From Ktedonobacterales bacterium (GTDB taxonomy: Bacteria > Chloroflexota > Ktedonobacteria > Ktedonobacterales > JADMIN01): a stretch of 32,000 nt of DNA. The translations under genes and the position numbers were made by a program. This document shows positions 2,301-31,374 of the stretch, piece after piece (the first letter of the stretch is position 1; the number at the start of each line of letters is the position of its first letter). The stretch is from the NCBI GenBank assembly GCA_030167145.1, contig CP126532.1:2430001-2462000 (forward strand), read 5' to 3'. The notes under the pieces were generated by a model. It was not told the DNA's origin, made no database searches, and worked only from the letters and a program-made list of their open reading frames with translations.

Positions 2301-3032
2301 CTACGCCAGAACGGCTGGCCCGCGCACGAAGACCGTCGGCCCGCCCTGCACCACGCAGTTGCCACTGGCGGGAATGCCCGTCAGCGCGTCGCTAGGCACC
2401 TTGAGCGTATTCGACCACACGCCGCTACTGGAGAACGACATACCGGTGAGGATATATCCGCAGGCGGGGTTGCCGTCGGTGCAGCCATAGTTGAACTCCA
2501 CCTGGCCAATCCCACGGCCCGCATAGATGCTCGTGGTGAAGGTGAGCGTCACATTGTCCCCCACGTGCATCGGGCAGGGGCTTAGCGACCACGAGACGCC
2601 GCTGTTGCCGCCGCTGCATGCGCCGCCACCGCCACCACCGCCGCCACCGCCGGGCGTGTCGGTCGGTACGGGCGTATCAGTCGCCGTGGGCGTGGGGTCA
2701 GGCCCCGCCGTCCCGGAGCTGGCAATGGTCGAGAGTGGCGCGGGGGGATTGGTCGCGGAGAAGGGGGTGGAGATCGGAAATTTCTCGTTGGCGGTGTGGG
2801 TGTTGGTGCCAGTGTTCGTGTTCGACGAACCCGTGCTGGTGGAGGCAGAGCCAAGACCCAGGCTGGCCAGCGTAGCATTGGCCGCTGTGGTCATCACGCC
2901 CATACAGGCGCACATCGAGAGAATCACCACCAGCCCCACCACCCCTGATACCGCCGCGCGGTACTGCGCGTTGGTCTCCCAGCGATGCTGGAAGCGATGG
3001 ACGATGCGGTCCAGCCACGTTGCGCGTAACAT
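2301..3032 (-). CDS. Membrane-anchored secreted protein: Thr/Pro/Gly-rich linker plus 4-Cys C-terminal domain (paralog of 5929..6624)
   Basis: Start moved to MLRATWLDRIVHRFQHRWET so it aligns with the paralog start MRPTSWLDQFVYRFQHRWET. Shared TM segment GVVGLVVILSMCACMGVMTT, low-complexity linker, and conserved AC.G...GV.W...PC....G.NVTLT...C....P.C pattern. Confidence 0.8.
   Translation of the reverse strand: MLRATWLDRIVHRFQHRWETNAQYRAAVSGVVGLVVILSMCACMGVMTTAANATLASLGLGSASTSTGSSNTNTGTNTHTANEKFPISTPFSATNPPAPLSTIASSGTAGPDPTPTATDTPVPTDTPGGGGGGGGGGACSGGNSGVSWSLSPCPMHVGDNVTLTFTTSIYAGRGIGQVEFNYGCTDGNPACGYILTGMSFSSSGVWSNTLKVPSDALTGIPASGNCVVQGGPTVFVRGPAVLA
2622..2651 (-). repeat. In-frame GGN x10 microsatellite (poly-Gly10) inside 2301..3032
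   Basis: The plus strand reads gccgccaccgccaccaccgccgccaccgcc, encoding GGGGGGGGGG. The paralog has only GGG at the equivalent site. Confidence 0.9.
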
Positions 3033-4503: not shown

Positions 4504-5625
4504 ATGGGGCAGACAGTCCGCAAGACGTACAAGTACCAACTGAACCCAACACCTAAGCAAGAACACGTGTTGGCAAGCGCCTTGTGGCATTGTCGCATGC
4601 TCTACAATACCGCGTTGGAGCAGCGCAAGGCGTGGTGGCAGCGTGGGCAAGGCAAGAGTGCAACCTACTACCAGCAGAAAGCGGAGTTGCCCGACCTGAA
4701 AGCGTCCAGTCCCGAATATGCTGAGGTACATTCACAGGTCTTGCAGGACGTGCTCTTACGGCTTGAGCACACGTTTGCCGCCTTCTTCCAGCGTATCAAA
4801 GACGGGCAGACGCCGGGCTATCCCCGCTTTCAAGGGCAGAACCGCTATCACTCCTTCACCTATCCACAATACGGCAATGGGGCTATGCTGGATGGGGGCG
4901 TGTTAAGTCTGTCGAAGGTCGGGCGTATTCCCGTTCGGCTCCATCGCCCCCTACAAGGTACACCCAAGTCCGTCACGATTTCGCATGAGGCAGATGGCTG
5001 GTATGTCTGCTTCTCGTGCGCTGAGGTGCCCGTACAGCCCTTGCCACTGACTGGCGAAGAGACGGGTATTGATGTGGGGCTGAAGTCCTTCCTGGTGACG
5101 GCGGAGGGGACATTCGTCGAGAACCCACGGCACTATCGCCGCGACGAGAAACGGCTGAAGAAAGCGCAGCGCGTCGTATCGCGGAGGAAGAAAGGCAGTA
5201 ATCGCCGCAAGAAAGCGGTGAAATTACTCGCCAAGCGACACCAGAAGGTGCGGCGGCAACGGCAGGACTTTCACCACAAAACGGCGCTGGCGTTGGTCCG
5301 CCAATACGATGTGATCTATCTCGAAGACTTGCGGGTTCGCAATCTGGTACGCAACCGTCACCTCGCCAAGAGCATCAGCGATGCCGGGTGGACGCAGTTT
5401 CGTATCACACTTGAGTACAAGGCAGCATGCGCCGGTAAACAGGTGATTGCGGTTGAGCCTGCCTACACCTCCCAGGACTGTAGTGGCTGTGGCGCACGGA
5501 TACAAAAGACGCTCTCCGTGCGCACCCATGTCTGCACGTCCTGCGGACTGGTCATGGACCGCGACGAGAATGCGGCCAGAAATATTCTCAGGTTCGGGCA
5601 GAACCTTCGTGGAGCGGTGGCGTAG
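4504..5625 (+). CDS. tnpB: TnpB (IS605 OrfB) RNA-guided endonuclease, RuvC triad intact
   Basis: N-terminus KTYKYQLNPTPKQ. RuvC D in GIDVGLK, E in IYLEDL, zinc ribbon CSGCG..CTSCG, and D in MDRDENAARNI. Confidence 0.9.
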   Translation: MGQTVRKTYKYQLNPTPKQEHVLASALWHCRMLYNTALEQRKAWWQRGQGKSATYYQQKAELPDLKASSPEYAEVHSQVLQDVLLRLEHTFAAFFQRIKDGQTPGYPRFQGQNRYHSFTYPQYGNGAMLDGGVLSLSKVGRIPVRLHRPLQGTPKSVTISHEADGWYVCFSCAEVPVQPLPLTGEETGIDVGLKSFLVTAEGTFVENPRHYRRDEKRLKKAQRVVSRRKKGSNRRKKAVKLLAKRHQKVRRQRQDFHHKTALALVRQYDVIYLEDLRVRNLVRNRHLAKSISDAGWTQFRITLEYKAACAGKQVIAVEPAYTSQDCSGCGARIQKTLSVRTHVCTSCGLVMDRDENAARNILRFGQNLRGAVA

Positions 5626-8866: not shown

Positions 8867-10105
8867 CTAACACGGCACGGGCACATAGGCTTCGATGAGC
8901 GTGGCACCAGCGCCGCCCCGGCTGACGTTACTCGTGCCCACCGCGAACACATCACCCGCCGCATCAGCGCTCACGGCGTTCAAGCTATCCATGTACACGT
9001 TTGCCGGATCGGGCGTGTCGAGCGTGTTCCAGGCTGCGGTTGTGCCGCTCCACGCCTCCGCCAGCGTGCGCTGCATCTGGTCGCTGTCAGTCTGCACACC
9101 CACAGCGACCACGGCTCGCACTGCCGGATCAGACGTGATAGCGTACAGTGAGTTGCTCGTACCAGGAGCGAAACCTGGACTGGTTACCTCGTTCCACCGG
9201 GAGCCATCCCAATGCAGCAGCAGCGGATTGCCGTGATGGCCACCCGCCGCCCACACATCACGAGCCGAGACCGCTGTGACGGCATGCAAAGCGGCCTCAC
9301 CCATAGAATAGGCCATCACCGTCCACCGCGTGCCGTCCCAATGTTCGATCAACGTCGCGCCACTGGTATCCTTGCCGGTGTACATATAGCCCACCGCCCA
9401 GGCGTCGCCGTCCGCAGCGATGGTCACGCTGGATAAGTCGTCTTGCGCGTGGGTGTGGTCCACTATCGGGCCGTTTGGGCTGGGGACGATGCTCCACCGC
9501 GCGCCATCCCACCGTTCGATCAGCGTAGCCTGGGAGGGGATCTGTGGTGAGGATGACGCCTCCCCGTGCGTCGTTGATCCCACCGCCCATGCCGTGCCAC
9601 CCGCCACCGCAACCGCTTGCAAAGCATTATCCACGCCGGGCACATTGGGGCTGGGCACGACCGCCCAACTGGTCCCATCATAGTGCTCGATCAACGTCCG
9701 CCGGTATGCGCTATTGTACCAAATCGCGCTATAGGCGCCGACCGCCCAGATGTCTGTTGCTGAGGCAGCCGCCACGGCGCTCAGACCGCCATACACATTC
9801 GGCCCAGGCACGATGCTCCACGTTGTGCCGTCCCAATGCTCGAACAGCGGCTTGCCACTATACGAAGAGCCAACAGCCCAGGCATCGGTGCGCGAAATAA
9901 CCGCGACACCCTGAAGCGTGTTGTCCGCCGCCACAATGTTGGGGCTGGCTACGATGCGCCATGCGCCGCACTTCGAGGTGGAGGCCGCCAGCGGCGATGC
10001 GTTCCACGGCAGCCGACCATAGCGCGCTTCGCTCACCCCCACAGCAACCACGCCCATCACCACAACCAGCGCCACACACGCCACGATAATCCGGCGACGA
10101 CTCAC
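8867..10105 (-). CDS. Membrane-anchored beta-propeller-like repeat protein
   Basis: N-terminal TM segment IIVACVALVVVMGVVAVGV. Six to seven repeats of the form (F/I)EHWDG..W..VPSPN...L..V......WAVG. GTG start with GGAG 7 nt upstream. Confidence 0.75.
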   Translation of the reverse strand: MSRRRIIVACVALVVVMGVVAVGVSEARYGRLPWNASPLAASTSKCGAWRIVASPNIVAADNTLQGVAVISRTDAWAVGSSYSGKPLFEHWDGTTWSIVPGPNVYGGLSAVAAASATDIWAVGAYSAIWYNSAYRRTLIEHYDGTSWAVVPSPNVPGVDNALQAVAVAGGTAWAVGSTTHGEASSSPQIPSQATLIERWDGARWSIVPSPNGPIVDHTHAQDDLSSVTIAADGDAWAVGYMYTGKDTSGATLIEHWDGTRWTVMAYSMGEAALHAVTAVSARDVWAAGGHHGNPLLLHWDGSRWNEVTSPGFAPGTSNSLYAITSDPAVRAVVAVGVQTDSDQMQRTLAEAWSGTTAAWNTLDTPDPANVYMDSLNAVSADAAGDVFAVGTSNVSRGGAGATLIEAYVPVPC

Positions 10106-10215: not shown

Positions 10216-11421
10216 TCAATGTTCCGGCGTATGCAGCGCGCCTGCAAGCACGATTGGCCCAGTGGGGCTGGGGCTGCCGCCAGCGGGTTCGGGCGTCACC
10301 GCCAGCGTATCGAAGTCGAGCGGCGGCTCGGCGGCATGCACCACGCTCGCGCCGTGCCCATGCGCGTCCAGCGCGAAGAGCGTGTTCGGCTGCGGCTGTC
10401 CTTCGCGCAGCAGCCACACCTGATACGCGCGGTCCGGGGCAAGCCGCGCCAAACCTGCGCTCACCAGCACCCCATCATGCCGCGAGCGCGCGCTGATGAA
10501 CCGTGCATGCGCATCCCGCCCCTGCGCCGTTCCCGGCACATTGACGATCACGCAATCCGGCTCCGCCAGCAGATCGCGCAGCAATTCGCCCGTCACATCA
10601 CGCTCCGCGCGCCTGCCGAAGAGGCCGCGCAAGAAGCCGCCCACGGATGCGCGCGGCTCAGCCGTCTCGGCTTCCGCGTCTGCCATACGTGTCGCTTGCT
10701 CTCCCGGTGCGCTCGCCTCGCCAAGTTCGCCCGCCAGCACCACCGGCCCGGTCGGTCCCGCGCTGCCCGTGAGCGGCTCTGGCGTGACGGCCAGCGTATC
10801 GAAGTCGAGCAGCGGCTCGGATGTGCGTACAACGCTTGCGCCGTGGCCGTGCGGGTCAATCGCGAAAAGCGCGTTAGGTTGCGGCTCACCCCCGCGCAGG
10901 AACCACACCTGATACGCCTTATCCGCCGCCAGCGGCCCCAGCCCCGCCGTCAGCAGCACCCCCTCGCGCCGTGACCGCGCGCCAACGAACCGCGCGCTCG
11001 CGCCCGCCGCGTGCTCCGTTCCCGGCACGTTCACGATCACGCAATCCGGCTCTGCCAGCAGGTCGCGCAATAACTCGCCCGCCAGATCAGCCGCATCCTC
11101 ATCCGCCTCACCGCCCGGCACCGCGCGCACGACATCTCTGGCGGCGTCACCGGCGGCACGCGCGCTCGCCGCTTCCGCGCGGACACGCGCCAGCACGCGC
11201 ACCCGCAGCGCCGGCGGCGTGGCCACCTGGGGCGCGGCCAGCAGCAGCAGATCGGCGCTGGCGCGGGCCTGAGCCAGCAGCGCCCGGCAGCGGGCGCACC
11301 CTTCCACATGCAGATCCACCGCCGCCACCTCCTCCGGCTCCAGCGCGCCGAGGACGAAGGCGTCTATCAGGTCGTCTACGTGTGTCTCTGGTATCTCTGG
11401 TGTCTCTCGCATGTCCATCAT
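10216..11421 (-). CDS. zf-HC2 anti-sigma factor with two tandem RskA-C-like domains
   Basis: N-terminal H-x3-C-x2-C (HVEGCARC). ATGA start/stop overlap with the upstream ECF sigma gene. Two ~118-aa copies contain AYQVW(F/L)LR.G.PQPN.LFA.D.HGHGASVV...DFDTLAVTPEP. Confidence 0.85.
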   Translation of the reverse strand: MMDMRETPEIPETHVDDLIDAFVLGALEPEEVAAVDLHVEGCARCRALLAQARASADLLLLAAPQVATPPALRVRVLARVRAEAASARAAGDAARDVVRAVPGGEADEDAADLAGELLRDLLAEPDCVIVNVPGTEHAAGASARFVGARSRREGVLLTAGLGPLAADKAYQVWFLRGGEPQPNALFAIDPHGHGASVVRTSEPLLDFDTLAVTPEPLTGSAGPTGPVVLAGELGEASAPGEQATRMADAEAETAEPRASVGGFLRGLFGRRAERDVTGELLRDLLAEPDCVIVNVPGTAQGRDAHARFISARSRHDGVLVSAGLARLAPDRAYQVWLLREGQPQPNTLFALDAHGHGASVVHAAEPPLDFDTLAVTPEPAGGSPSPTGPIVLAGALHTPEH

Positions 11422-13194: not shown

Positions 13195-14061
13195 TCACTC
13201 CCCATCATCGCCAAAGAGTAGCGACTGCTCGGTTGATGAGGCGAGCCGCTTCTGCTCGTCGCGCCTGATCTGCTCAATGCTCTTGGTGGGTGTTGGCAAC
13301 TGCTCAGGGGGTGTGCCGCCCAGGTCTTCGATGGTCTCGCGTACACGCTTGCCCACATCGTAGTGGGTTTGGTTGGCGGCGTCTTTGCCCTGGATGCCCT
13401 CGCGGCGGATCTTCGCTTCGGTCTGCGTAATGCGGAAGAAATTCGCGGCCAACTCTTCGCTGCCCATCCAATCGAGCACTTTCTGCCCGCGCTTCAGCCC
13501 CTTGCGTGCCGCGATGTCCTGCGCCGTCTCGCCGTCGTAGAGGCCACGATAGCCGTGATTCTGAAACGTTGCGAAATCTTGCTGGGTAACGACGCCCGCC
13601 TCATACACGGCGGCAGCCAGATCCACATTGCGCGCGGCGGCTTGGTCGCGCAGCACGATGCGCCGCTGCGCTTCAGTGAGGCCTGTCAGTTCTCCGGCCA
13701 ACTCCGCCCGGCGCGTCTGGATGGCGAAATAGGTCTGACCAAGCGCGACGATGGGCTTCTCTGGGTCCGCGTTCTGCACCACAAGGTAGCAGGCATAGCG
13801 AGACAAATGCCAATCCTCTACTTCACGTATAGCTCCTGAGCCGAGCGTGACCATATTAACATCAGTGTTAAAATGGTCTGTGATGCGCTGGCCGCTGTTC
13901 TCGCATGCAGTCTGTGCGCGCGCAATGACGCCCATGAAGCGCTGCCAGCCACTGTAATCGAGCACCTTTGCCAGCTCACGTGCGCTCCAATACTCGCCGC
14001 CGCCTTCTGCCTCGTGGCGGATCTGCTCAAATGGCGATACACGCTGTGTGTTGTCGCTCAT
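13195..14061 (-). CDS. dinD: DNA-damage-inducible protein D (DinD family)
   Basis: Collinear with my recollection of E. coli DinD: PFEQIRHE..YWSARELAKVLDYS, SRYACYLVVQNADPEKP, GQTYFAIQTRRAEL, FQNHGYRGLY, GSEELAANFFRITQTE, LGGTPPEQLPTP. Start set at ATG 14061 (MSDNTQ, GGGGGAGAGG upstream) rather than the track start at 14130. Confidence 0.9.
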   Translation of the reverse strand: MSDNTQRVSPFEQIRHEAEGGGEYWSARELAKVLDYSGWQRFMGVIARAQTACENSGQRITDHFNTDVNMVTLGSGAIREVEDWHLSRYACYLVVQNADPEKPIVALGQTYFAIQTRRAELAGELTGLTEAQRRIVLRDQAAARNVDLAAAVYEAGVVTQQDFATFQNHGYRGLYDGETAQDIAARKGLKRGQKVLDWMGSEELAANFFRITQTEAKIRREGIQGKDAANQTHYDVGKRVRETIEDLGGTPPEQLPTPTKSIEQIRRDEQKRLASSTEQSLLFGDDGE

Positions 14062-14304
14062 GCCAAACCTCTCCCCCAAGCCCGCCACACGTGAGCGGCC
14101 AAACACAACGGCCACGCGCACCCATCCCATGTGAGAGACAGGTCCACGTGGCCGGAATATCCCAAAACCACTGTGCGAACGTCGTGTCCGTCTGATAGAC
14201 TAGACTCAGGCGTGCCCTGCCAACTTCAGGATGCGCTCAGCGGTCCGGGCAGTGTTACGAGCACTGCGCGGGCCGCGCCCATTTGTGCGGGCTTGTTATG
14301 TACC
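14062..14304 (-). promoter_or_regulatory. Conserved ~240-nt 5' leader of dinD (copy A of a repeated leader)
   Basis: Aligns with 21365-21615. It has a 66-nt 100%-identical core (14095-14160) and further identical blocks, e.g. tctgatagactagactcaggcgtg and caggatgcgctcagcggtccgg. See findings. Confidence 0.6.
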
Positions 14305-14333
14305 AGTATACCATAACGCGATGCGATTGTCAC
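14305..14333 (-). promoter_or_regulatory. Extended -10 promoter GTGACA-N17-(TGG)TATACT, copy A
   Basis: Minus strand reads gtgacaatcgcatcgcgttatggtatact. Near-identical copies lie at 21616-21644 and 22913-22941. Confidence 0.6.
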
Positions 14334-14417
14334 ACACAGAGAATCGTTCAGGGGATGTGCGTGCGTGCCTGCCTCAGTTGCTGGTTTTTTTAGGCAGCCT
14401 GGACATGTAGGGCGTGG

Positions 14418-21364: not shown

Positions 21365-21615
21365 GCGAAGACCCTCCTCAAGCCCACCAGCCACAGGCGG
21401 CCAAACACAACGGCCACGCGCACCCATCCCATGTGAGAGACAGGTCCACGTGGCCGGAATATGCTCGATACCCCAAATACCTCTGTGCGAACGCCGCGTC
21501 TATCTGATAGACTAGACTCAGGCGTGTCCTGCTTCTTCCAGGATGCGCTCAGCGGTCCGGCAGTGCGTCCAACACTGGTCGGGCCGCGCCCATGTGTGTA
21601 AGCTTGTCGTAGGCC
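21365..21615 (-). promoter_or_regulatory. Conserved ~250-nt 5' leader (copy B of the repeated leader)
   Basis: Aligns with 14062-14304. The 66-nt identical core is at 21397-21462. Confidence 0.6.
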
Positions 21616-21644
21616 AGTATACCATAACACGATGCAATTGTCAC
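21616..21644 (-). promoter_or_regulatory. Extended -10 promoter GTGACA-N17-(TGG)TATACT, copy B
   Basis: Minus strand reads gtgacaattgcatcgtgttatggtatact. Confidence 0.6.
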
Positions 21645-21710
21645 TGGTTGAAAACTGGCCAGATAGCGTGAGAGCGAGCGATTTTCACCTGTTGGATTTC
21701 TACCAACAGT

Positions 21711-22565: not shown

Positions 22566-22912
22566 GGTTCTCGCTCCTATCCTCCACAACAATCAGACAG
22601 CAGTCATTTTGACTGCTGGTAGCTCGCTATACCATGCCAAGCCAGACAATACAAGGCTTTCCCCAAGGGTCTATCATGGGGAGTACATGTCTGCACGCCT
22701 CCTCCTGGGATATGGAGACGCTGAAGTGAGGAATCGGATCGGGGGAAAGCAGAGATGCCTGCGGCTTGGGCCTGCGATGTCAGATGAGTCTATGCTATTG
22801 CCCGTGCCGCATGCTATGCTGCTACAAGCCCTGTCCGCTGCTACCGTCAGCGCCGGGGTCAGAGCGCCGTTCGTGTTGTCAGCACGGACGGCGTTCGCAC
22901 ATTGATGTGGCA

Positions 22913-22941
22913 AGTATACCATAACGCGATGCGATTATCAG
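22913..22941 (-). promoter_or_regulatory. Third copy of the shared promoter (CTGATA-N17-(TGG)TATACT)
   Basis: Minus strand reads ctgataatcgcatcgcgttatggtatact. The spacer is identical to copy A. It overlaps the stop codon of the upstream FAD oxidoreductase gene. Confidence 0.5.
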
Positions 22942-27878: not shown

Positions 27879-28080
27879 AATCGCCTCTTTCGCCCGCGCT
27901 CTCTGGCCAGCGGGCAGGCACATACTGTGTTAGTGTAACGTATTGTCTCCACACGAAAAGCGTACCCGTACTATTCTGTACGACCGTGTCCGAAATGGAA
28001 AGCGCCTCATCATTGCGGCGCGCATGAGATACAGCATGAGACACGAAGTGCCCGCGCACCAGTGAGCGCGCGAGCACTTG

Positions 28081-28089
28081 AGTATATCA
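28081..28089 (-). promoter_or_regulatory. Candidate extended -10 element (TGATATACT) upstream of uvrB
   Basis: Same TATACT -10 hexamer with an upstream TG as the dinD-type promoters. No convincing -35. It would give a ~200-nt 5' UTR. Confidence 0.3.
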
Positions 28090-28111
28090 CGTCAAAAGCG
28101 TGGCGATATCG

Positions 28112-30206: not shown

Positions 30207-30420
30207 ACACGGGACATAATCACCGTGACTACTCTCCCGCATACATGCGGGAGCTTCTAGGAGCAAGCCCCAAGGTGTGTAGCCCCACACCTAAAATGTT
30301 CAGACTGGCGTTGAAATCACGGTCGAGAACCACCCTGCAGCAGGGGCAGGTATAGATGCGGTCTGCAAGGGAGAGCGGTTGCCGATGTCCACACTGCGAG
30401 CAATCTTGACTGGTATACGC
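30207..30420 (-). ncRNA. Predicted omega-RNA of the second TnpB (scaffold overlaps the tnpB 3' end; guide acggtgattatgtcccgtgt)
   Basis: By analogy with characterised systems. A perfect 8-bp hairpin at 30234-30253 lies inside the last tnpB codons. The guide is the 16-20 nt beyond the inferred right end (30226 downward). The 5' end was not determined. Confidence 0.35.
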
Positions 30421-31374
30421 GGGGTTCACTGCCACATACTTTCGACCGGCCCATGCTGCCTTGTACGAGAGGGTGGCGGCGAACTGACTCCACGCCGCGT
30501 CATGAATGCTCTTGGCGAGACAATGGTTGTGCATCATCCGGTTGACCGACAAATCTTCGACGGCGATGAGGTCGAAGCCATCAACGATACGGCGGCTGTG
30601 CTGGTGGGCGAAGTCGCTCCGTCGCCATCGAATCCGCTCATGCACCCGCGCTACCACCTTGCGCCGCGTGGCGCGCTCCGATGTGCCCTTTTCTTCCTTG
30701 CTGAGACGCCGCTGTACCTTCGCCAGAACCGTTTCTTCGGCACGGAAGAAACGCGGGTTAGCGATTTCCAGCCCAGTCGAGAGCGTGGCAAAGGTCTTCA
30801 AGCCCACATCAATCCCCACCTGCTGCCCGATCTCTGGCAGTGGGGGTGGCTCAGCACATTCACACGAGAAGCAGACATACCATTTGCCGGTACTGCTGCG
30901 GCTGATCGTCGCCGTCTTGGCTGTGCCTTCCCATTGGCGATGGAGTACGATCTTTACCAAGCCGACGCCATGCAACCGCAGACGCCGCGCATCCGCATCC
31001 AGCGTGCAGCCTACTGGCACCTGGGGATAGGTGAGGCTGGCGTAGCGCCCCTGGCCGCGAAAGCGCGGATAACCAGGTTCTCGCTCACCGGCCTTCATAC
31101 GGCGGAAGAACGCCTGAAACGCCAAGTCAATGCGGACCGCGACATTCTGCAACACCTGCGATTGGACACTAGCCAGTGTGGGTCGCTCAGCTTTGAGCAC
31201 AGGCAATGTCGCCTGCTGGTCGTAGAGGCGCAGCGATTCTTGCCGCTGCTCCCAGGCGTCGCGCCGGGCAGCCAGCAGTTCATTGTAGAGCCAGCGGCAC
31301 TCCTCAAGCTGCTGTGCGAGGAGGCGCTGCTGCTGCTTGGTCGGGTACAAGCGGTACTTAAACGTCTTACGCAT
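30229..31374 (-). CDS. tnpB: TnpB (IS605 OrfB) RNA-guided endonuclease, RuvC triad intact
   Basis: MRKTFKYRLYPTKQQ, GIDVGLK, IAVEDL, CSQCG..CPCC, LDRDFNASLNI. Confidence 0.9.
   Translation of the reverse strand: MRKTFKYRLYPTKQQQRLLAQQLEECRWLYNELLAARRDAWEQRQESLRLYDQQATLPVLKAERPTLASVQSQVLQNVAVRIDLAFQAFFRRMKAGEREPGYPRFRGQGRYASLTYPQVPVGCTLDADARRLRLHGVGLVKIVLHRQWEGTAKTATISRSSTGKWYVCFSCECAEPPPLPEIGQQVGIDVGLKTFATLSTGLEIANPRFFRAEETVLAKVQRRLSKEEKGTSERATRRKVVARVHERIRWRRSDFAHQHSRRIVDGFDLIAVEDLSVNRMMHNHCLAKSIHDAAWSQFAATLSYKAAWAGRKYVAVNPAYTSQDCSQCGHRQPLSLADRIYTCPCCRVVLDRDFNASLNILGVGLHTLGLAPRSSRMYAGE

Follow-up and report, generated by a model that had tools for sequence, protein, structure and literature searches.

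A repeated promoter-and-leader module upstream of DinD-family genes of a Ktedonobacterales bacterium is a candidate convergent antisense-RNA control cassette

The closest described counterparts of the element analyzed here are the sar/ant system of phage P22, SymR/symE, and the countertranscript attenuators of pT181 and pIP501 (PMC5415839, PMC1891008). SymR is a cis-antisense small RNA (sRNA) opposite the 5' end of symE, a gene of the DNA-damage regulon, the product of which is kept tightly off (PMC1891008). Here, we describe a module of ~270 bp in a 32,000-nt stretch of a Ktedonobacterales genome (contig CP126532.1, positions 2,430,001 to 2,462,000; the whole stretch is referred to as the window) that is repeated upstream of two genes of the DinD family, gene A and gene B. 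Diverged relatives lie upstream of gene C, which encodes a protein with the P22 antirepressor N-terminal domain (P22_AR_N), and upstream of L001, a second DinD paralog of the same genome. We suggest that DinD-family and antirepressor-like genes are controlled through this module by an antisense RNA that is transcribed from a convergent promoter, a reading that we find about as easy to accept as to doubt. Our confidence stays at this middle level because the RNAs are predicted, the 3' end of the antisense RNA is undefined, and no copy was found outside one genome. Most likely, the module belongs to a known type of RNA control, as a new and unnamed family seen so far in one genome only; it would work like the systems named above and is a member of none of them.

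In this model, a near-consensus extended -10 element on the gene strand would drive transcription of a leader of ~237 nt, and an extended -10 element on the opposite strand (TGATAGACT), ~100 nt downstream, would drive a two-hairpin antisense sRNA of ~70-95 nt with full complementarity to the ~90 nt at the 5' end of the leader. The remainder of the leader, which is predicted to be structured specifically on the sense strand, would contribute a 46-nt hairpin followed by UUGUGUUU and a long-range helix from the leader 5' end to the bases before the Shine-Dalgarno sequence. We infer that the downstream gene would be kept off when the antisense RNA pairs with the nascent leader; candidate routes are termination at the hairpin and U tract, opening of the closing helix, cleavage of the duplex, and promoter interference. 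Divergent loops could render the A and B pairs mutually orthogonal.

In P22, the sar RNA overlaps the ant ribosome-binding site. The genes downstream of the module resemble this system in that they carry antirepressor-type domains (Bro-N, P22_AR_N); however, the predicted overlap here comprises the first ~90 nt of the 237-nt leader, at least 130 nt from the ribosome-binding site, and sequence similarity, a prophage context, and genes for Arc and Mnt are all lacking. The likeness to SymR/SymE (RF01809) is that DinD is damage-inducible in Escherichia coli and that the gene C cassette gives a weak SymR match (30 bits, E 0.003, 22827-22899 on the plus strand), which begins at the predicted antisense start at 22827, as does a weak match to ctRNA_pGA1 (20 bits). 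In contrast, the gathering threshold of SymR is 61 bits and the cassette is not a member of the family, copy A has no match, the targets are unrelated to SymE, and no LexA box was recognized in a scan for GAAC-N4-GTTC. Specificity located in loops is general in the pT181 and pIP501 attenuators and would be shared here; however, the genes involved here are chromosomal and of the defense or SOS type rather than rep, no mutually exclusive "preemptor" pairing was found, and the terminator is predicted from sequence. Type I toxin-antitoxin systems of the hok/sok kind also come to mind, with a predicted cis-antisense RNA against the leader and a long-range 5'-3' helix (P1) next to the translation start; however, the products here are DinD-family proteins of 288-303 aa and not small hydrophobic peptides, and the three targets in the window, at 288, 303, and 293 aa, compare with the <60 aa of a type I toxin peptide.

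Based on MAFFT and a repeat finder, copies A (14074-14335) and B (21376-21646) can be aligned over their full lengths on the same strand; the identity, 81-89%, varies with the choice of ends. In the direction of the genes, the module consists of GTGACA, a 17-nt spacer, TGgTATACT, the ~237-nt leader, the ribosome-binding site, and the start codon. The similarity is limited by the -35 box at one end and the Shine-Dalgarno sequence at the other, the flanks are unrelated, and proteins A and B share 29% identity over just 77 aa. These results agree with the original prediction, which described a ~240-nt module repeated upstream of two DinD-family genes with unrelated flanks and only distantly related coding regions. 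Its 66-nt perfect block (14095-14160 and 21397-21462), further perfect sub-blocks, and two hairpins were all recovered at their places, with diverged patches interrupting the other perfect blocks. The 46-nt core of the 66-nt block matched only these two places, and a perfect run of 66 nt was obtained in none of 100,000 random placements of the 54 differing columns (P<1e-5). Where a single 8-nt indel had been reported, the alignment contains one indel of 10 nt (B 21463-21472) and two of 1 nt. The reported lack of terminal inverted repeats applies to the DNA but not to the RNA: the module ends are complementary (CAAGCCCGC/GCGGGCUUG), and because this pairing in B holds only with G·U pairs, we interpret it as an RNA helix and not as a DNA terminal inverted repeat. 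The only tandem repeat in the module is GTCTA x2.

The module had also been described as devoid of coding signal, and this was borne out. A coding function was rejected: the sole long open frame, which spans 89 codons in B, is interrupted by three stops in A, and the frames differ between the copies. No conserved small open reading frame (ORF) emerged from comparing the frames of leaders A and B, and the 89-aa frame of leader B, used as a protein query for miscalled ORFs in other copies, had no match. An ORF of 14-18 codons at AUGGGCGCGGCC was likewise rejected by eye, as it lacks a Shine-Dalgarno sequence and is frameshifted in B.

Table 1. Predicted features of the module copies, their genes, and the related cassettes (window coordinates, except for L001)
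Feature	Position	Strand	Basis or remark
Gene A, DinD, 288 aa	13195-14061	-	NCBIfam NF008573 2.7e-112; Pfam Bro-N; PADLOC PDC-S13 model PDLC04919 1e-107
Gene B, Bro-N/DinD-family, 303 aa	20453-21364	-	GTG start; ribosome-binding site AGGAGGG; Pfam Bro-N; PADLOC PDC-S13 model PDLC04920 2e-107
Gene C, P22_AR_N, 293 aa	22592->21711	-	Pfam
Sense promoter A: GTGACA, 17-nt spacer, extended -10 TGgTATACT	14305-14333	-	Promoter scan, 10/12 matches with TG; same block at B and C
Sense promoter B: GTGACA, 17-nt spacer, TGgTATACT	21616-21644	-	Promoter and extended -10 scans
46-nt hairpin A: 10 bp + 9 bp, G/G internal loop, 6-nt loop	14109-14154	-	Inside the 66-nt perfect block
U-rich tract A, UUGUGUUUGG	14099-14108	-	Directly 3' of the 46-nt hairpin, ~40 nt before the start codon
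Copy B hairpin (21411-21456) and U tract (21410-21401)	21401-21456	-	Match to copy A
Closing helix P1, 5' strand CAAGCCCGC	14287-14295	-	Pairs with 14085-14077; leader ~+4 to +12
Closing helix P1, 3' strand GCGGGCUUG	14077-14085	-	Abuts Shine-Dalgarno GGGGAGAGG (14076-14068); ATG 14061-14059
Antisense extended -10 TGATAGACT, copy A (the TAGAC TAGAC block)	14193-14201	+	Regex scan; predicted start A14208
Antisense extended -10 TGATAGACT, copy B	21505-21513	+	Regex scan; predicted start A21520
Antisense extended -10 TGCTATGCT, gene C leader	22812-22820	+	Regex scan
Antisense extended -10 TGATATGCT, L001 leader	2724->2716 (L001)	-	Regex scan
Predicted antisense sRNA A: hairpin 1 14209-14237, CA linker, hairpin 2 14240-14276, tail	14208-14300	+	Fold of the plus strand
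Predicted antisense sRNA B: hairpin 1 21521-21549, hairpin 2 21552-21587	21520-21611	+	Fold of the plus strand
Gene C cassette: sense promoter 22941->22913 (-), predicted antisense sRNA 22827-~22905 (+), hairpin 2 22862-22896	22812-22941		Homologous to L001

The proposal of an antisense RNA derives from the four long leaders of this genome (A, B, C, and L001; Table 1). A scan for TGNTANNNT found in each of them the sense promoter plus one element on the opposite strand, and in all four this antisense -10 sits 92-104 nt from the sense -10 and is followed, after exactly 6 nt, by an invariant A-G. The motif is rare, with 5.8e-4 occurrences per nt per strand in the window; these calls are motif matches only and the -35 boxes are poor. 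The four predicted RNAs have a common architecture, with a first hairpin of ~30 nt, a short linker in a conserved UCAG, a second hairpin of ~35 nt, and a tail reaching the sense promoter. Importantly, the hairpins are more stable on the antisense strand. In copy A, hairpin 1 folds with -11.1 kcal/mol on the plus strand and -8.9 on the minus strand, and hairpin 2 with -31.5 and -22.2 kcal/mol; the corresponding values in copy B are -16.3 and -11.3 and -24.0 and -18.8 kcal/mol. The two-hairpin region as a whole reaches -40 to -43 kcal/mol in the antisense and -30 to -31 in the sense orientation, an advantage of 10-13 kcal/mol that recurs in 4/4 copies. The tip of hairpin 2 in copy A is the CAGTG...CACTG hairpin of the original prediction, in which both quoted hairpins were taken as structures of the sense leader; this assignment was not upheld, given that each is 2-9 kcal/mol more stable on the plus strand and homologous to the antisense hairpins of the second leader type.

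Comparison of the four copies points in the same direction. They align at 72% column identity, and BLAST saw nothing between the two leader types. The four-copy consensus fold is -25.4 (z -7.2) for the antisense strand versus -14.0 for the sense strand, and 94% of cells pair in this alignment; shuffles gave 85±3% (1/500), and controls with slid partners gave 34-51%. At five pairs both partners have changed, and two G·U pairs (columns 2/33 and 6/29) are invariant; they exist on the antisense strand only and turn into A·C mismatches in the sense RNA. Thus, the antisense-strand-specific conserved structure expected of a cis-antisense sRNA was present in 4/4 copies. Between A and B, 10/14 loop bases differ and only 4/55 stem and linker bases do (Fisher P=2e-6), the contrast of kept stems and changed loops that the original prediction had pointed out. 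Loops are the usual specificity determinants in antisense systems. The loop divergence between A and B would fit an insulation of the paralogous pairs, and missing constraint on the loops explains it equally well. The tail of the predicted antisense RNA is identical in sequence to the P1 3' strand and, therefore, would compete for the P1 5' strand.

The second leader type comprises 22593-22941 (minus strand, gene C) and L001 2616-3000, two loci that are 0.4 Mb or more apart; the two long leaders are homologous, with 63% identity over 153 nt. Hairpin 2 of this type has at least five compensatory pairs between gene C and L001 and is ~10 kcal/mol more stable in the antisense orientation (gene C, -27.9 on the plus strand versus -18.1 on the minus strand). 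Outside the antisense cassette, the type 2 leader as a whole has little conserved structure (z -1.9 and -1.5). At L001 ~2849-3003, we also observed an upstream ORF of ~50-60 codons, the TGA of which overlaps the GTG start (GTGA). Judged by eye, this ORF is not conserved in the gene C leader; its arrangement suggests translational coupling to the DinD paralog.

The sense leader is structured as well. For gene A, transcription is predicted to start at ~14298. In the 66-nt block, the 46-nt hairpin, which is identical in copy B and contains four G·U pairs, folds with -35.8 kcal/mol (z -7.4) as the minus-strand RNA and with -20.3 as the plus-strand RNA. With UUGUGUUU (6 U in 8) after it, the hairpin looks like a terminator. 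The terminator scanner did not list the hairpin, probably because of the internal loop in its stem. As an alternative, RNAalifold pairs the U tract with CGGACACGAC (14190-14181), and 4/4 substitutions in B keep this pairing. A search by RNAduplex for an antiterminator or preemptor against the hairpin gave as its best upstream duplex one with the 5' arm of ~-21 versus -36 kcal/mol, and the hairpin forms in every fold of the truncated RNA. Because no pairing is able to rival it, a classical refolding attenuator is not supported. In the gene C leader, a 9-bp hairpin plus U tract (22618->22589) is similarly located just before the Shine-Dalgarno sequence.

At the other end of the leader, P1 reads CAAGCUUAC/GUGGGCUUG in B, with one compensatory change (G-C to A-U) and two C-G to U-G changes relative to A, and the ribosome-binding site and start codon are unpaired in the minimum-free-energy folds. 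The leader folds of the single sequences are better than those of shuffles (z -2.8 and -3.7), and the two-copy consensus fold of -100.1 kcal/mol compares with -68.1±5.0 for column shuffles and -74.6 for the opposite strand. Consistently, when pairs are predicted from one copy alone, the other copy has fewer substitutions at paired positions than expected (17 versus 25.7; P=0.001 without the perfect block), and these substitutions break fewer pairs than expected (P=0.003-0.018). Sense specificity is limited to the 66-nt block and the closing helix. Thus, the original prediction of a cis-regulatory structured leader is retained as far as the cassette is bounded by promoter and ribosome-binding site, noncoding, and structured, with substitutions that avoid or preserve pairs. 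It is not retained for the 5' ~100 nt, with both hairpins and the TAGAC-TAGAC block, where a convergent antisense sRNA gene gives a better explanation than sense-strand structure.

These data bear directly on the alternative that survives best, namely, that the module is purely a sense-strand cis-regulatory 5' untranslated region (riboswitch-like, protein-binding, thermosensing, or a factor-dependent attenuator) with no antisense transcript, and that the plus-strand -10 is coincidental or a motif of the sense RNA or an operator. The 25 kcal/mol by which the whole-leader sense fold exceeds the antisense fold, the sense-specific covariation and wobble pairs of P1, the sense-specific 46-nt hairpin with its U tract, and the z values of the minimum-free-energy folds all speak for such a leader. 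However, the hairpins of the 5' half are weaker in the sense RNA in 4/4 copies, with invariant G·U pairs that become A·C mismatches, no Rfam family matches at E<=10, and, unlike for typical riboswitches, orthologs in related metagenome-assembled genomes (MAGs) are without the element. The cross-species conservation with covariation by which a riboswitch is recognized was not seen, and a single compensatory pair separates A and B. We consider this explanation unlikely, although the strongest of the alternatives.

A second alternative places the function in the DNA: the promoter region, with its operators for proteins (palindromes such as CAGTG-N7-CACTG and CACGTG), would have been duplicated or gene-converted, the mosaic would stem from patchy conversion, and the RNA would be functionless. 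The 32-nt promoter block, including its spacer, has a third copy at 22909-22940 upstream of gene C, and conservation of the spacer in three genes suggests an operator; palindromes with variable spacers fit the binding sites of dimeric proteins, and the location of three genes within 9 kb favors conversion. The motif TGTGCGAACGnCG also occurs in both orientations. It is found three times in the window (14172-14184 and 21484-21496 on the plus strand and 22889-22901 on the minus strand; chance expectation, 0.44), in A and B spanning the -35 region of the predicted antisense promoter and in C, in reversed orientation, immediately downstream of the sense -10. Its presence at the three sites could reflect binding of the same protein or descent from a common ancestor. 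However, the helices need G·U pairs and are imperfect palindromes as DNA (15/19 for the 46-nt hairpin), a strand asymmetry of 10-15 kcal/mol is meaningless for double-stranded DNA, compensatory changes between leader types are impossible by conversion, and it would be unusual for operators to extend over ~240 bp beyond the transcription start. Moreover, the modules have no LexA box of the GAAC-N4-GTTC type of Gram-positive bacteria and Chloroflexi (Cheo type), the motif scanned for systematically; eight one-mismatch matches, a number expected by chance, all lie elsewhere in the window. Because the strand asymmetries and the covariation argue against a DNA-level function, we regard it as improbable.

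Third, the module could be an independent sense sRNA gene, with a promoter, an RNA of ~200 nt, and a terminator hairpin, and the downstream gene could be fed by read-through in the style of type III toxin-antitoxin loci, in which the toxin gene comes after an RNA and a terminator. The strong promoter followed by a very stable hairpin and U tract 40-50 nt before the start codon is what such a gene would look like, and both downstream proteins belong to the candidate defense family PDC-S13. However, the module lacks ToxI-like tandem repeats (GTCTA x2 being the only repeat), P1 needs sequence 3' of the putative terminator and has a compensatory change, and an RNA identity of 85% contrasts with two nearly unrelated proteins, giving no sign of RNA-protein coevolution; we give this idea little credence. 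Finally, a miniature mobile element or dispersed repeat inserted between promoter and gene, as might be suspected from the B orthologs, which keep a homologous -10 region but have a leader of 60-95 nt, leaving ~150-190 nt lineage-specific, and from ends that are complementary over 9 nt, is very improbable, since there are only two copies in 32 kb plus 100 kb of loci, no target-site duplications, an end complementarity that needs G·U in B, and no match in phage, plasmid, viral-contig, genome, and metagenome collections, and since the strand asymmetries and covariation argue against it as well.

Several observations weigh against the antisense-RNA cassette itself. Both RNAs and their promoters are predictions, and the antisense promoters have poor -35 boxes. 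Enrichment of the extended -10 motif is by itself modest in the four leaders (~0.5 expected versus 3-4 observed, of which A and B are not independent). No convincing terminator was found after the antisense hairpins, leaving the 3' end of the sRNA undefined. On the sense side, the 46-nt hairpin was not called by the terminator scanner, and no upstream segment rivals its -36 kcal/mol (best, ~-21). Patchy gene conversion could also make perfect blocks without selection. Lastly, all four copies are in one genome, the homologs of A and B in other MAGs are without the cassette, and the scans of collections were empty. It follows from this distribution that the covariation comes from four paralogous copies only.

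Searches were made at several levels. With Rfam 15, the window had no match at gathering thresholds and 14030-14360 had none on either strand at E<=10, in line with the earlier statement that the module belongs to no named RNA family. Exact and degenerate pattern scans of viral contigs, genome representatives, and JGI metagenomes, collections that do not include the source genome, were empty, and blastn against phages and plasmids gave no match to the module. Searches of the fetched loci and the window by blastn, nhmmer, and covariance models returned the known copies only. No copy of the module was found upstream of five homologs of A (65-69% identity) in other MAGs, of four orthologs of B (76-79% identity) in Ktedonobacterales MAGs, or of two more distant homologs of B. 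In the source genome, L008, a second Bro-N paralog, is without a long leader. The original prediction had made its reading depend on further homologs of the module; none came from orthologs in related MAGs or from the collections, and what was found are the diverged copies at gene C and L001 in the same genome.

The B orthologs have a related -10 region (GTTATATACTGG...) and leaders of just 60-95 nt, indicating that most of the leader is lineage-specific. Upstream of these orthologs in the four Ktedonobacterales MAGs (L009 2930-2975, L010 1590-1640, L011, and L012), TATACTG(G/T)N(3)TACAGCATGCGGGCAC is present at and directly after the -10 and resembles TATACTGG...ACAAGCCCGCAC of the window; this shared sequence could be a conserved operator or a 5' hairpin. 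A different upstream architecture was observed in another MAG, in which a DinD homolog is preceded by two direct copies of the 28-nt repeat GGTAGTGACACACGCAGGTAGGCGACAC (L004 1-160).

If the module is an antisense-RNA cassette, it would provide the first regulatory handle on DinD-family/Bro-N genes outside the LexA paradigm of E. coli and would count as one of the earliest sRNA regulators put forward in Ktedonobacteria (Chloroflexota). Such a cassette would also imply that widespread and poorly understood candidate phage-defense proteins need the tight RNA silencing usual for toxins and antirepressors, and that a cassette of promoter, antisense RNA, and leader can move between unrelated genes within one genome. 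Because the element is seen in one MAG only, its practical value is limited for now. We speculate further, and consider it quite unlikely as a whole, that the DinD-family, Bro-N, and antirepressor-like proteins of PDC-S13 are harmful effectors silenced by an undescribed family of cis-antisense sRNAs together with a leader attenuator. They would then form a module for full-size proteins that resembles type I toxin-antitoxin or abortive-infection systems, in which loop divergence insulates paralogous pairs and the cassette is recombined between unrelated effector genes.

As for the genes, protein A scores 374.8 bits with NF008573 and passes its cut-off of 242 bits, compared with 17 bits for protein B; judged by this model, A alone is DinD proper and B is a distant relative in the family. 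PDC-S13 is a candidate-defense family of PADLOC, and A and B match it through different models with similar scores (~1e-107). Protein B is 100% identical to database entry P0121, and protein A is likewise identical to an entry from the same genome. The database start of gene A (311 aa, ATG 14130) falls inside the loop of the conserved hairpin, and the frame of the resulting N-terminal extension differs from that of the equivalent ORF in B. Based on the ribosome-binding site GGGGAGAGG, the homologs, and this frame difference, we favor the ATG at 14061 (288 aa); the database annotation is, thus, probably 23 residues too long. Our literature searches on PDC-S13 and on LexA of Ktedonobacter found nothing useful.

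The neighborhood is ordinary chromosome and not a prophage, with uvrB, an extracytoplasmic function (ECF) sigma/anti-sigma pair, oxidoreductases, and two IS605-type TnpB genes. uvrB and the ECF sigma gene have, at their likely promoters, a -10 motif of the same class as the module, and strong promoters of the source genome seem to favor the TATACT-type -10 in general. Upstream of uvrB (minus strand, 27924-28111), the extended -10 TGATATACT (28089->28081) lies ahead of a 12-bp hairpin, located at the transcript 5' end, and of several GTAC repeats. The two TnpB genes, of the IS200/IS605 type (OrfB_IS605/Cas12f-like TNB), are inverted (4504-5625 on the plus strand and 30229-31374 on the minus strand), lie ~25 kb apart, and bracket the region; inverted repeats at the two genes (4999-5090 and 30791-30882) match each other. 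The gene for the RskA-like anti-sigma factor contains, at 10286-11074, an internal direct repeat of 300 nt with 77% identity. Finally, the ORF at 8867-10105 has a repeat of ~52 nt that occurs five times at 9174-9849 with a spacing of 129-171 nt and probably reflects repeated protein domains.

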